From contig CAKSSJ010000009.1 of assembly GCA_934488615.1 (NCBI GenBank), positions 774 to 64,773 on the forward strand: a stretch of DNA of 64,000 nt, written 5' to 3'. Source of the DNA: an uncultured Eubacteriales bacterium (GTDB lineage: Bacteria > Bacillota > Clostridia > Oscillospirales > Acutalibacteraceae). The notes below the pieces were generated by a model, which saw only the letters and a list, made by a program, of their open reading frames with translations, had not been told where the DNA came from and made no database searches. Positions 8,444 through 16,407 of this stretch are shown piece by piece; position 1 is the stretch's first letter, and each line of letters starts with the position of its first letter. The translations under genes and the position numbers were made by a program.

Positions 8444-8472
8444 TTGACATTGCAAGCAGAAAATGGTATCAT
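8444..8472 (+). promoter_or_regulatory. Sigma-A type promoter TTGACA-17 nt-TATCAT driving the riboswitch leader
   Basis: Plus-strand read: TTGACAttgcaagcagaaaatggTATCAT. Confidence 0.5.
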
Positions 8473-8473
8473 T

Positions 8474-8673
8474 GGTAAAACAGCATATCGGAGGGAAGTT
8501 CGGTGCAAATCCGTCGCAACAGCCATTACCGTGATTGAAGCAATTCATAAGTCGGAATACCCGATACGCTTTAATAAAATCTTTGGGCAGGAAAGTAATA
8601 ATAAGCTGTATTTGTTTTGAAAGACGAATACGGTTTGTAAACTTTTGCCGCCCGGAAAGGACGGTCTTTTTTT
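8474..8673 (+). promoter_or_regulatory. Cobalamin (B12) riboswitch with terminator-type expression platform
   Basis: Core GGAGGGAAGTTCGGTGCAAATCCGTCGCAACAGCC..ACCGTGA resembles the conserved GGGAA..GGTG.AA.TCC..GC...ACTGTGA core. A B12-box-like AAGTCGGAATACCCGATA lies at about 8549-8566, and a P1 pairing TATCGG/CCGATA flanks the core. A hairpin at 8647-8666 plus T7 (8667-8673) abuts the first ATG. Confidence 0.78.
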
Positions 8674-8925
8674 ATGTCGGAAAAGACAAAGGAAGAGTAT
8701 CTTGATTTACTCAGAGCTGTTGCGAGCAAGGAAAAGCGCTTCCCGAAAAAGAGTGATTTCTCCGAGGACGATGTGAACCGAATAAAAGGCTTCTTCGGTC
8801 CTTGGCCGTGGGCGCTCGAAGCCGCAGGGCTTAAGGAATCGAAGCAGGAGGAGCGCAAGCAGCGCAACTACGAAAAAAGGCAGCGTTCAAAGGCGCGCAG
8901 AAAAGGAGAATCAAACAATGCTTAA
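8674..8925 (+). CDS. 83-aa protein with one homing-endonuclease-associated (HNH_repeat-like) helix motif and a basic tail
   Basis: EEYLDLLRAVASKEKRFPKKSDFSEDDVNRIKGFFGPWPWALEAAGLK resembles the ...FGSW..AL..AGL repeat. The C-terminus is K/R/E-rich. It is the first cistron after the riboswitch and overlaps the next gene by 8 nt. Confidence 0.6.
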   Translation: MSEKTKEEYLDLLRAVASKEKRFPKKSDFSEDDVNRIKGFFGPWPWALEAAGLKESKQEERKQRNYEKRQRSKARRKGESNNA

Positions 8926-13414: not shown

Positions 13415-14973
13415 GCTTCCGATATGCCCTCGGAGACAAGAATTGTCTTGAAAAAATTAACATGGAAATAAATGACGGCGAATTTGTTATTCTCTGCGGA
13501 AAAAGCGGCTGCGGCAAGACCACATTGCTTCGTCAGCTCAAGCCTGCCATCACTCCGACGGGCAAGCGCAAGGGGGAAATTCTTTTCAACGGCGCCGAGC
13601 TTGACAAAGCAAACCTGAGAACGCAGTCAGAAAAAATCGGCTTTGTCATGCAGAATCCCGAAAGCCAGATCGTCACGGACAAGGTGTGGCATGAGCTTGC
13701 GTTCGGACTTGAAAATCTCGGAATGAAAACGGCGGAAATCCGCCTGAGAGTTGCCGAGATGGCTTCATACTTTGGAATTGACGATTGGTTTGATAAAAAA
13801 ACAAACGAGCTCTCGGGCGGTCAGAAGCAGATACTCAACCTTGCCGCAGTCATGGCAATGCACCCCGATGTTCTTATCCTCGACGAGCCGACCTCACGGC
13901 TTGACCCTATCGCCGCCGAGCGATTCCTTGAAACCGTCAATAAAATCAACAAGGATCTCGGCGTTACAGTAATCATAACCGAGCACAGGCTGGAGAATAT
14001 TTTTTCCTTTGCAGACAGAATCGTTGTAATGGACGGCGGAAAAATTATTGCCGACGGTGAGCCGAAAAAAATCGGAGAAATTGCAAACGAATTACCCGAG
14101 CTTGTTAAGCTGAGCCTGCCGACCGCGATGAAAATTTTCTCCGCGGCAAACGGAAAAGGTGAAGCTCCCGTTTGCGTCCGTGACGGAAGAAGCTGGCTCA
14201 AAAATCAAAATATTTCTTGTAAAAAAATTGAGAGAAAAAATAAAATTTTCAGCGAAAAAAATGCAATAGAATTAAAAAATATTTCGTTCAGATACGAGAA
14301 AAATTCCGACGATGTTTTAAGCTCTTTAAGCTTAAAAATTCCGCAGGGCTGTGTGTTCGCCTTGCTCGGCGGAAACGGTGCAGGCAAATCAACTCTTTTC
14401 AAGGTTATTGTCGGAACTGAGAAGCCCTACAACGGTAAAATAAAAATTAACGGCTCCGTTGCCGCAATGCCGCAGGAGGTCCAAACACTCTTCGCTTCTA
14501 GGACAGCAAAAGAAGATCTCGGAGAAATGTCGCAGGACGTTGAAAAAATAAAAAAGGTTGCCGAGCTTATGCAAATTGAAAACCTTTTTGAAAGCCACCC
14601 GTTCGACCTCAGCGGCGGAGAGCAACAGCGCCTTGCCGTTGCCAAGCTTCTTCTTTGCGAGCGCGACATTTACTTTTTTGACGAACCGACCAAGGGCATG
14701 GACGCGGAATTCAAAAAGATTTTTTCGGAAATTTTGTCCGAGCTCAAAGCAAAAAATAAAACGGTAATTATCATCTCGCACGACATAGATTTTTGCGCCG
14801 AGAATGCGGAGCTTTGTGCAATGCTTTTTGACAAAAATATTTCCGCAGTCAGCCCGACCGATGAATTTTTTGACGGCAACCGTTTTTACACGACCTCTGC
14901 AAATAAAATTTCAAAGGGATTTATTGACGGCGCAATAACGGACAAGGATGTGATCGAATGTCTAAAAAAATAA
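13387..14973 (+). CDS. Fused double ATPase of an ECF/ABC transporter (EcfA-EcfA' type)
   Basis: Two Walker A motifs (GKSGCGKTT, GGNGAGKST), two signature motifs (LSGGQKQ, LSGGEQQR) and two Walker B motifs (ILDEPTS, FFDEPT). AAGGAGGA RBS. Confidence 0.9.
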   Translation: MAQITIKNLSFRYALGDKNCLEKINMEINDGEFVILCGKSGCGKTTLLRQLKPAITPTGKRKGEILFNGAELDKANLRTQSEKIGFVMQNPESQIVTDKVWHELAFGLENLGMKTAEIRLRVAEMASYFGIDDWFDKKTNELSGGQKQILNLAAVMAMHPDVLILDEPTSRLDPIAAERFLETVNKINKDLGVTVIITEHRLENIFSFADRIVVMDGGKIIADGEPKKIGEIANELPELVKLSLPTAMKIFSAANGKGEAPVCVRDGRSWLKNQNISCKKIERKNKIFSEKNAIELKNISFRYEKNSDDVLSSLSLKIPQGCVFALLGGNGAGKSTLFKVIVGTEKPYNGKIKINGSVAAMPQEVQTLFASRTAKEDLGEMSQDVEKIKKVAELMQIENLFESHPFDLSGGEQQRLAVAKLLLCERDIYFFDEPTKGMDAEFKKIFSEILSELKAKNKTVIIISHDIDFCAENAELCAMLFDKNISAVSPTDEFFDGNRFYTTSANKISKGFIDGAITDKDVIECLKK

Positions 14974-15653
14974 TCACACTTTTTGTCTTTATTCTCGGAA
15001 TTCCCGCAATAATTTTCGGCTGTGCGAAGCTGATAATTTCAAAGCAATATTACCTCGCAAGCGCATTGATAATCGTGCTTGCGCTTGCCGCTCTTTTTTG
15101 GAGCCTTGAAAAGAAAAAAATGCAGACGCGCGAGCTGGTGGCAATCGCATGCATCGTTGCGCTTTCGGTCGTAGGACGCGCGGCACTGTTCATGATTCCG
15201 CAGGTCAAGCTCACCTGCGCGATCGTGATTCTCGCGGCGATATCGTTCGGACCTTATGTCGGATTTCTATGCGGCTCGCTCTCGATGCTCGTTTCAAACA
15301 TTTTTTTCGGTCAGGGTGCCCACACGCCTTTCCAGATGTTCGGTATGGGTCTTGTCGCCTTTTTGTGCGGTCTGATTTTTTACAGAAAAAAGCTCGGGCG
15401 AAACCGTTGGGCGGTCGCAATTGTCGGCGGTATATTATGCTTCGCCGTTTACGGCTTTATAGTCGATTCAAGCTCGGTTCTTTTTTTCACGTCTGTGCCG
15501 ACGATCAAAACCATGCTCCCAGTTTACATTTCGGGGCTGAAATTCAACGCAATTCACGCCGTAGCAACGCTCGTTGCGCTTTTTGTCGCGACGCCTTATA
15601 TTCAGGATACATTCGGCCGAATTGCCAAAAAATACGGACTTTTCAGCTCTTGA
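14958..15653 (+). CDS. Six-TM membrane protein, candidate ECF substrate-capture (S) component
   Basis: 231 aa and almost entirely hydrophobic helices. It is translationally coupled to the ATPase gene (16-nt overlap). The assignment comes from position in the ECF operon and topology only. Confidence 0.65.
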   Translation: MSKKIITLFVFILGIPAIIFGCAKLIISKQYYLASALIIVLALAALFWSLEKKKMQTRELVAIACIVALSVVGRAALFMIPQVKLTCAIVILAAISFGPYVGFLCGSLSMLVSNIFFGQGAHTPFQMFGMGLVAFLCGLIFYRKKLGRNRWAVAIVGGILCFAVYGFIVDSSSVLFFTSVPTIKTMLPVYISGLKFNAIHAVATLVALFVATPYIQDTFGRIAKKYGLFSS

Positions 15654-15684
15654 ACAGCGGCGGGTACTCGAAAGGATTGATAAC

Positions 15685-16407
15685 ATGAAAAAGTATATTT
15701 CATTTTTGCTCATTCCAGCTTTGATTCTTTTGTCGGGCTGCGGAATGACCGTTACAAAAGTTGAAAACACAACAGCCGATGAGCAAAATATAACAGCCAC
15801 GACAGCAAGCACAACGGCGGTTTATACCACGACCTCGCCGAGCACAACAAAAAGCAAAGCTGTTTCAACCACAAAATCAGTAACCACAAAATCGGGCGGC
15901 ACAATTACAACTGCTCCGACCGTCAAGCCCTCCAAGGTCACGACAACAAAAAAGCAGGGCAAGACCGTCACCTGCACAATTGAGATCGAATGTAAAACAA
16001 TACTCAGCAATCTCGGTAATCTTCGTCCCGAAAAGAAAGCGTTTTTGCCGAAGGACGGTTTTATTCTTAAAGAAACGACCGTTTCTGTTGCAGAGGACAG
16101 CACTGTTTTTGACGTGCTGAAGCTCGTTTGCAAGCAGAACACCTGCCCCGAGAAGTGCACCTACTGCCGCAAATCGGGAATTCAGCTTGAATATGTTTAC
16201 ACCCCGGGCTATGACAGCGAATATATCAGAGGAATTCATCAGCTCTACGAAAAGGACTGCGGAACGCAATCGGGCTGGATGTATTCGGTCAACGGAGTCT
16301 TCCCGAACTACGGCGTAAATAAATACACCGTCAAAAACGGCGACAATATAAAACTGCTCTACACCTGCGACCTCGGCGAAGATGTCGGCAACAGCTTTTC
16401 GGGTTGA
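15685..16407 (+). CDS. DUF4430 (transcobalamin-like C-terminal domain) lipoprotein with Thr/Ser-rich linker
   Basis: Start set at ATG 15685 (MKKYISFLLIPALILLSGCG lipobox). T/S-rich linker, then ...GWMYSVNGVFPNYGVNKYTVKNGDNIKLLYTCDLG, the DUF4430 hallmark. Confidence 0.85.
   Translation: MKKYISFLLIPALILLSGCGMTVTKVENTTADEQNITATTASTTAVYTTTSPSTTKSKAVSTTKSVTTKSGGTITTAPTVKPSKVTTTKKQGKTVTCTIEIECKTILSNLGNLRPEKKAFLPKDGFILKETTVSVAEDSTVFDVLKLVCKQNTCPEKCTYCRKSGIQLEYVYTPGYDSEYIRGIHQLYEKDCGTQSGWMYSVNGVFPNYGVNKYTVKNGDNIKLLYTCDLGEDVGNSFSG

Follow-up and report, generated by a model that had tools for sequence, protein, structure and literature searches.

In this work, we analyze a 64,000-nucleotide stretch of DNA (the window) from an uncultured gut bacterium (GenBank assembly GCA_934488615.1, contig CAKSSJ010000009.1, positions 774 to 64,773 of the forward strand), and focus on an operon at window positions 8444-16407 that joins a riboswitch-like leader, an energy-coupling factor (ECF) transporter and several exported proteins. 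The reading that we favor, with a probability of about 0.7, is a cobalamin-repressed operon for corrinoid capture and import in an Oscillospirales (Acutalibacteraceae-like) bacterium. The assignment to corrinoids is strongly supported by homology and by conserved gene context.

Gut Bacteroidota and Firmicutes compete for the same scarce cobamides, and extracellular capture is understood in Bacteroides only. The locus and its relatives make the question of Gram-positive capture testable, since they offer a defined anatomy, a riboswitch that marks B12 and a CbrT-type importer as the likely receiver. In addition, cultured carriers such as Lawsonibacter celer, Bovifimicola ammoniilytica and Muricoprocola aceti can be used for genetics. 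The concept is not new: the operon is an uncharacterized Gram-positive variant in which an importer, a regulator and B12-binding folds, each of them known already, come together.

Organization of the operon

Seven co-directional genes lie within 8674-16407 (Table 1). In the map of open reading frames (ORFs), neighboring genes abut or overlap, so that there is no space for internal promoters and a single transcript is likely. The promoter upstream of these genes recurs in relatives: many orthologous leaders contain a TTGACA -35 element and a -10-like element about 17 nt downstream, at an unchanged position.

Table 1. Features of the operon and the adjoining gene, in window coordinates
Feature	Position	Strand	Basis
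Sigma-70-type promoter with extended -10 (TTGACA-17-TGgTATCAT)	8444..8472	+	11/12 matches, TG present
Compact cobalamin riboswitch aptamer, ~130 nt, class-II-like by size	8467..8602	+	RF01482 match, ortholog covariation, model R1
Expression platform	8583..8673	+	Folds; ortholog leaders
83-aa cytoplasmic HNH_repeat protein, basic tail	8674..8925	+	PF18780, E 5.5e-12
735-aa exported multidomain protein	8918..11125	+	PDB sequence search, AlphaFold2 model, Foldseek, Pfam, hhalign, hydropathy
446-aa exported 8-bladed PQQ/BamB/YxaL-type beta-propeller	11129..12469	+	Pfam PQQ_2, AlphaFold2 model, Foldseek
EcfT (T component), 312 aa, extra C-terminal hydrophobic segments	12476..13414	+	Family profile A7 vs PDB; hydropathy
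Fused EcfA-EcfA' double ATPase, 528 aa	13387..14973	+	Two ABC_tran domains; TIGR04520
CbrT-family S component, 231 aa, two additional N-terminal hydrophobic segments	14958..15653	+	PDB match 6FNP_A; profile A6
DUF4430 (transcobalamin-beta-like SLBB) lipoprotein, 240 aa	15685..16407	+	PF14478; gene call in locus L001
Single-domain rhodanese, 118 aa	16421..16777	+	PF00581, E 9.4e-18; gene call in locus L001

An earlier reading of this stretch (the original prediction) had already recognized the promoter, the 83-amino-acid (aa) HNH-repeat protein, the secreted 446-aa beta-propeller, EcfT and the fused double ATPase, all of which are retained here. It spoke of eight ORFs and listed only seven; seven is the number found in 8674-16407, and an eighth co-directional gene, encoding a rhodanese, lies just beyond 16407. 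Three further assignments stood in part. The 735-aa protein, described as Big_2/DUF4430-like, does contain Big_2, its DUF4430-like part is marginal by Pfam and backed by profile-profile alignment, and its N-terminal BtuH-like domain had been missed. The S-component-like protein, described as having six transmembrane segments, is of the CbrT family and has two extra N-terminal hydrophobic segments. The DUF4430 lipoprotein is confirmed by Pfam, with its start corrected as given in Table 1.

Riboswitch leader

The leader extends for about 195 nt upstream of the first ATG. The original prediction took it for a cobalamin riboswitch, and three lines of evidence bear this out. A permissive Rfam scan of 8380-8720 gives a full-length match to RF01482 at 8467-8600 (40.7 bits, E 2.7e-6), whose E-value, rescaled to the 64-kb window, is still about 5e-4. 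RF01482 is the eut-type adenosylcobalamin (AdoCbl) aptamer; the window element may prefer AdoCbl, MeCbl or HOCbl.

The second line is covariation. We aligned 20 distinct orthologous leaders from fetched related loci (numbered L001 onward), across which the core GGGAAGTTCGGTG.AA..CCGTCGCAAC.GCCATT.CCGT is invariant. Covariation was scored on a structure modelled after the Rfam architecture; MAFFT and RNAalifold alone missed the variable inner hairpin because of gap placement. In this alignment 85.1% of the cells pair, compared with 34-58% when the partners are slid. Changes on both sides occur at 10 pairs, including one P1 pair that is A-U in 11 sequences and G-C in 9, and the covariation score is 0.173 against 0.092 for shuffles, with none of 500 shuffles reaching the observed value.

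For the third line, a covariance model of our own (R1) was built from the same alignment. It finds a single site in the window (143 bits), sites in 28 orthologous loci (104-148 bits) and sites in 7 distant loci (46-54 bits), and all seven distant sites are on the operon strand, immediately 5' of an HNH_repeat gene. In L042, L084 and L085 the R1 site overlaps an RF00174 match of 34.1, 39.9 and 32.4 bits, respectively, above the gathering score of 31.5. This coincidence identifies the leader as a true member of the cobalamin riboswitch clan. By sequence comparison, then, the window leader belongs to that clan as a diverged and compact member, in spite of its sub-threshold score.

Downstream of the aptamer, a terminator hairpin (8647-8665) is followed by a run of seven U residues (8667-8673) that directly abuts the ATG at 8674, as the original prediction had noted. 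Folding places a central 17-bp hairpin at about 8601-8637 of the expression platform and a candidate ribosome-binding site, AAAGGA, within the terminator hairpin. The invariant GGGC(R)GGAAAG at the 3' edge of the aptamer is able to pair with the 5' arm of the terminator and is therefore a candidate antiterminator. In locus L017 this predicted pairing is a 10-bp helix between GGGCGGGAAA and UUUUCCGCCC, and a comparable long-range helix is predicted in the window. Four orthologs (L019, L020, L025 and L029) have stronger, GC-rich terminators that are followed by a separate GGAGG. Together, the predicted foldings suggest an OFF-type switch.

Compared with the known cobalamin riboswitches (RF00174 and RF01482; clan CL00101), the window element has a conserved core, covarying P1 and inner helices, an apparent OFF-type platform with a terminator and corrinoid transport genes under its putative control. 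It differs in being only about 130 nt long and divergent in sequence, and in scoring below both curated cut-offs in the window.

Two further observations concern relatives. In L008 (9482-9643), about 32 nt are inserted between P1 and the terminal hairpin; they form an extra hairpin within the 3' portion of the riboswitch, and the element still scores 111 bits with R1. In L055, two features follow downstream of the ECF genes (14039-14108 and 12667-12864), namely a Gut-1 RNA match of 59.6 bits and, on the opposite strand, another Cobalamin riboswitch.

ECF transporter

By homology, the transporter is a dedicated ECF-CbrT-type B12 importer, consisting of EcfT, a fused EcfA-EcfA' and a CbrT-family S component. 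The S component alone has CbrT (6FNP_A) as its best solved relative (E 3.5e-8). When a profile of 15 family members (A6) is used, the match to the same chain reaches E 3.8e-20 and covers chain residues 4-177 of 182, whereas the runners-up are RibU (7e-8) and FolT (1e-5); the S component is thus nearest to a corrinoid transporter and not to ECF systems for other substrates. Hydropathy indicates the canonical core plus the two further segments listed in Table 1. The EcfT family profile (A7) matches L. delbrueckii EcfT (5D3M_D, also present in 6FNP) with E 3.7e-19, and Pfam CbiQ gives 20.9 bits on the 312-aa protein, under its 25-bit cut-off. The ATPase passes the NCBIfam model TIGR04520 (ECF_ATPase_1) with 336 bits against a cut-off of 315.

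ECF-CbrT of Lactobacillus delbrueckii (PDB 6FNP; Santos et al. 2018) is a proven cobalamin and cobinamide importer (PMC5997447). The window shares with it the CbrT-family S component, EcfT and ECF-type ATPases, and ATP-driven import of cobalamin and cobinamide is presumed here. However, the ECF module of the window is encoded inside the operon and is dedicated, in the style of group I, and is not a shared module of group II such as the one that serves several S components in L. delbrueckii. The ATPases are fused in the window, and in distant relatives they are further fused to the S component. The window S component and EcfT carry extra hydrophobic segments, and the operon adds exported accessory proteins and riboswitch control; the word 'riboswitch' is absent from the L. 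delbrueckii paper (PMC5997447).

The fusions in distant operons are EcfA-EcfA'-CbrT-like S proteins of 809-944 aa (L042 14343-16856; L037 16463-19279; L084 13434-16052; L085 13053-15710). Such a covalent link between the ATPases and the S component is unusual for an ECF transporter.

Exported proteins

The 735-aa protein has a signal peptide (residues ~1-25) without a lipobox, followed by a BtuH-like domain (~28-285), an Ig-like domain, Big_2 (392-448) and a DUF4430/SLBB-like domain (~456-600). The C-terminal part consists of a prealbumin-like Ig domain and an amphipathic helix (711-734). The AlphaFold2 model has a mean confidence (pLDDT, predicted local distance difference test) of 89.6.

The BtuH-like domain was found by sequence and by fold. 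In a phmmer search of the PDB, residues ~28-285 match 7BIZ (BtuH2, E 3.5e-19) and 8BLW_B (the H-domain of BtuG1, E 2e-16), and Foldseek returns the same two chains at the top for the whole model (8BLW_B E 8e-17, 7BIZ E 9e-16; 28-29% identity over about 300 columns). These entries are Bacteroides thetaiotaomicron BtuH2, which binds B12 (PMC8941943), and BtuG1 with its H-domain (PMC10404256). The published B12 contacts of BtuH2 were mapped through the alignment, where the chain index equals the residue number minus 100. Three of them align with residues that do not vary within the Firmicute family (N399 with N98, F401 with F100 and L578 with F272), and one, Q333, falls outside the alignment. From these comparisons, corrinoid binding by the domain is plausible. 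A lead concerning DUF4465 (PMC13398666) was dropped: DUF4465 is BtuJ and not BtuH, so that this paper does not cover the BtuH-like domain.

Compared with BtuH2 and the BtuG1 H-domain, the domain is a homologous globular unit that keeps the GNAF, EPG, WY.L.GSE and GE.STE motifs and the contacts on the nucleotide/phosphate side; Ig-like spacers and a locus under a B12 riboswitch are further likenesses. On the other hand, the binding domain is N-terminal here and C-terminal in Bacteroides, the protein is not an outer-membrane lipoprotein, and its spacers are Big_2/Ig rather than PKD. The partner is also different, namely a single-membrane ECF transporter in place of BtuB-BtuG.

The DUF4430-like domain of the 735-aa protein (~456-600) aligns with the DUF4430 family of the lipoprotein in hhalign (91.6% probability, E 8e-7, over 31 columns only). 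This profile-profile comparison was needed because BLASTP of the C-terminal part against the lipoprotein gives only E 0.026. Foldseek of the whole protein does not isolate the domain, because matches to Ig tandems dominate.

The lipobox of the lipoprotein reads LLSGC. Behind it come a linker of about 90 aa that is rich in Thr and Ser (29 of 91 residues are Thr) and a DUF4430 domain that is well above the Pfam gathering score (PF14478, 62.4 bits against 23.8, E 5.8e-17); a PDB sequence search with this protein gave no match.

The AlphaFold2 model of the 446-aa protein (pLDDT 91.6) has 32 strands, forming 8 blades, and Foldseek places BamB, YxaL, PQQ enzymes and designed propellers (Cake proteins) nearest to it. 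It resembles BtuG and BtuK of Bacteroides in that all are exported beta-propellers encoded in a B12 uptake locus, but those are 7-bladed, whereas the window protein is 8-bladed, PQQ-type and nearest to BamB and YxaL. The idea that it is related to BtuG/BtuK by descent was rejected, as neither the fold (top 50) nor the sequence gave a match. Since it has no detectable relation to these proteins, it should not be called a corrinoid binder. It is probably a protein scaffold. Outside the close clade, the propeller was seen only in one fusion protein of L081.

Similar amphipathic C-terminal helices end the 735-aa protein (residues 711-734, window 11053-11125, FIVRMFKAVYNFIVKVINKIFDGM) and the 446-aa protein (residues 429-445, window 12413-12469, FFKRIINAIVSFFKKLF). 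Both have a hydrophobic moment of 1.9-2.0, with a periodicity that is conserved in both families. As a speculation, they could be a shared in-plane anchor or docking element.

The first gene of the operon

The HNH_repeat protein has no signal peptide, and its gene overlaps the next ATG by 8 nt at its stop. Homologs are present in 36 of the fetched loci, and in 7 of 8 distant loci, as in those of the close clade, the gene comes first in the operon after the riboswitch. A profile search retrieves 4,535 small standalone relatives. In L084 (9001-9300) and L085 (9001-9285), which were examined independently, divergent members of this family (~80-105 aa, with a basic tail) again open the operons. 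The gene order there is riboswitch, HNH_repeat, a large DUF4430 protein, a DUF4430 protein, CbiQ and a fusion of two ATP-binding cassettes with an S component; the BtuH-like domain is absent from these two operons.

The family profile gives only chance-level matches to Prp17 in the PDB, and a literature search on HNH_repeat function found nothing.

Conservation of the system

The closest named relatives of the window are 'Ruminococcus sp. CAG:563' and 'CAG:488' (88% identity), and the entire operon is conserved across the close clade, down to about 45-60% identity. The family of the 735-aa protein has 1,121 matches at E up to 1e-5. In distant Clostridia, where the N-domain is 37-45% identical, the BtuH-like domain still adjoins one or two DUF4430 genes, EcfT, EcfAA' and a CbrT-like S component, and the BtuH-like, DUF4430 and ECF-CbrT genes are found together in dozens of Clostridia species. 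Of the 22 distant loci that were scanned, 15 have an RF00174 match at or above the gathering score on the operon strand, upstream of the accessory genes. As for the remaining loci, one riboswitch is found by R1 alone, and several of the negatives are cut at a contig edge.

What varies is the way in which the modules are attached. Distant BtuH-like domains are embedded in giant wall-anchored proteins. For example, a protein in L042 combines DUF4430, a BtuH-like domain, a prenyltransferase-type alpha/alpha toroid (transcobalamin-alpha-like) and LPXTG, and one in L037 (Lawsonibacter celer) combines Ig, DUF4430 and three SLH repeats. The system is abundant in gut metagenomes, with some 90%-identity clusters containing hundreds to about 1,850 member sequences.

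The Clostridia-type operon was also seen on contigs titled Bacteroidaceae, Bacteroides faecis, Eggerthellaceae, Coriobacteriaceae, Bacteroides sp. CAG:927 or Sodaliphilus (L004, L009, L012, L027, L036 and L076). All six come from 'cleanbin' metagenome-assembled genomes, so that mis-binning is likelier than transfer. Note that this matters because BtuH is otherwise a Bacteroidota family.

Relation to previous work

Burroughs, Balaji, Iyer and Aravind (2007) predicted Gram-positive extracellular transcobalamin-like SLBB proteins to be B12 scavengers, and described SLBB fusions to Ig or propeller domains, paralogs within one operon and CbiO/CbiQ-like neighbors (PMC1796856). The window operon resembles those SLBB (DUF4430) operons in each of these respects, including the secreted or surface location. 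That work, a prediction only, predates CbrT, BtuH and the ECF concept; neither the BtuH-like domain nor the riboswitch nor the HNH_repeat gene appears in it.

Three btuH homologs in Firmicutes were pointed out by Putnam et al. (2022), and one of them adjoins an ECF-like cobamide transporter in Eubacterium siraeum (PMC8941943). This locus, EUBSIR_01285, receives a single-sentence mention, and its anatomy, regulation, distribution and function are left undescribed (PMC8941943, PMC13616437); a 2026 review calls the Gram-positive role "entirely uncharacterized" (PMC13616437). Our literature search for Gram-positive extracellular cobamide binders found nothing. The statement in the original prediction that no Firmicute system of this composition has been characterized experimentally agrees with the literature searched, while the idea itself was predicted in 2007 and noted in 2022.

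In another Firmicute, Lactobacillus sakei, the operon lsa1836-1840 likewise encodes an ECF transporter together with extracellular proteins that resemble transcobalamin alpha and beta; the preprint assigns this operon to heme uptake and mentions a riboswitch nowhere in its text (bioRxiv 10.1101/864751).

Proposed mechanism

When intracellular cobalamin is low, GGGC(R)GGAAAG would engage the 5' arm of the terminator as an antiterminator, and transcription would proceed through the entire unit. When cobalamin binds to the compact aptamer, the short terminator hairpin with its U7 tract would form instead; this hairpin would also bury the ribosome-binding site, so that expression would stop. Outside the membrane, corrinoid-binding modules would be held at different heights. 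The DUF4430 (transcobalamin-beta-like) domain of the lipoprotein would stand on its Thr-rich stalk of about 90 residues, and the 735-aa protein would present its BtuH-like and DUF4430-like domains with Ig spacers between them. These modules would raise the corrinoid concentration near the membrane and deliver corrinoids to CbrT. Four parts of this scheme are inferred: that the ligands bind, that they are handed on, how the leader switches and that the helices act as anchors.

As originally predicted, the operon couples an ECF transporter under riboswitch control to exported proteins that probably bind corrinoids. The CbrT-family S component, the BtuH-like and DUF4430 domains and the association with riboswitches agree with this idea; for the third exported protein, the propeller, a corrinoid-binding role is not supported.

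A wider proposal is that Clostridia possess a multi-module extracellular corrinoid relay, made of B12-binding folds that it would share with Bacteroides BtuH and animal transcobalamin and feeding ECF-CbrT, and that the HNH_repeat protein, always first after the riboswitch, is an unrecognized dedicated component of the B12-uptake regulon, either a nucleic-acid-binding co-regulator or a corrinoid-handling factor. We regard this combined proposal as tentative, and on balance doubtful.

Evidence against the reading, and alternatives

Several results weigh against a corrinoid capture operon. At the gathering score, an Rfam scan of the whole 64-kb window gives zero matches, so that the element is detected in the permissive scan only; the RF01482 score of 40.7 compares with a curated gathering score of 50. 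The terminator hairpin is short and weak (6 pairs and an internal mismatch, -7.6 kcal/mol, z -0.66), and a terminator scan did not call it. The DUF4430-like part of the 735-aa protein reaches 14.6 bits (E 0.045) with PF14478, below the cut-off. Among the seven mapped BtuH2 contacts, four are replaced in the 735-aa protein (H476 by P169, Y510 by I203, W511 by L204 and W577 by A271), and in BtuH2 these residues hydrogen-bond corrin side chains. Because the pocket keeps its phosphate/nucleotide side but not its corrin side, binding remains plausible, but the selectivity among corrinoids may differ. For the propeller, BtuG and BtuK are not among the top 50 Foldseek matches, and their chains are not among the 27 PDB sequence matches at E up to 1. 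Finally, both C-terminal helices are amphipathic and not clearly membrane-spanning, which makes anchoring uncertain, and the related operon of L. sakei has been linked to heme (bioRxiv 10.1101/864751).

Among the alternatives, the nearest to the corrinoid capture reading is that ECF-CbrT imports corrinoids under the riboswitch while the exported proteins only sequester or store them at the surface, as a sink or reservoir of the kind proposed for Bacteroides BtuJ, with no hand-off. Bacteroides BtuH2 forms no stable interaction with BtuB or BtuG, and a relay role for it is not settled (PMC8941943; PMC13616437), BtuJ1 is described as an extracellular reservoir in the title of a preprint (bioRxiv 10.1101/2025.07.01.662609), and distant homologs in the present family are giant wall-anchored proteins far from the membrane. 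However, the linkage with the transporter is tight and very widespread, with translational coupling, and a lipoprotein with a flexible stalk is placed at the membrane beside the S component; we consider pure storage unlikely. It is less likely again that the Ig-rich proteins and the propeller take no part in corrinoid handling, being surface or adhesion proteins encoded in the same operon as a B12 importer. Such a role would fit the generic Ig-tandem and S-layer proteins that Foldseek returns outside the BtuH-like domain, and the resemblance of the propeller to the scaffold BamB and the secreted YxaL. Against it, BtuH-like and DUF4430 domains accompany ECF-CbrT genes and Cobalamin riboswitches in one lineage after another, with changing anchors and spacers, and B12 complexes have been solved for both domain families (7BIZ for BtuH2; transcobalamin according to PMC1796856).

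The remaining two alternatives concern the substrate. Heme or another tetrapyrrole has been proposed for L. sakei lsa1836-1840 (bioRxiv 10.1101/864751), and the replacement of corrin-contact residues of BtuH2 would be compatible with it. Nevertheless, a cobalamin riboswitch leads the operon here and in most relatives, and the S-component profile fits CbrT far better than any other S component; these two features argue against heme in this operon, and the binding evidence in L. sakei is from docking only. We consider this substrate very improbable. A cobalt transporter of the CbiMNQO kind under a B12 riboswitch is the most improbable of all. Cobalt ECF transporters under B12 riboswitches are known (PMC11477304), Pfam labels the T component CbiQ, and the NCBIfam matches of the ATPase include cobalt-ATPase models. 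But neither CbiM nor CbiN is present, the S component is of the CbrT family, and the ATPase passes the general ECF model and no equivalog-level cobalt model, although it does exceed the cut-off of the broad cbiO subfamily model TIGR01166.

Neighboring genes

The rhodanese gene starts 14 nt past the stop of the lipoprotein gene and ends before the convergent mfd gene. It is probably co-transcribed with the operon, and its synteny is limited to the closest relatives (L004-L016 and L027). A link between rhodanese and B12, for example in handling the cyanide of cyanocobalamin, would be pure speculation.

Upstream of the operon, a perfect consensus promoter on the minus strand (TTGACA-16-TATAAT, 8438-8411) stands back to back with the operon promoter and drives an unrelated divergent gene for a 677-aa PIG-L/DUF7402 protein (6343-8376). 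Elsewhere in the window, also on the minus strand, a 1,316-aa ORF (49201-53151) has no Pfam match at E up to 1e-5, and its neighbor (43778-47899) encodes a large surface protein of 1,373 aa with FIVAR repeats.

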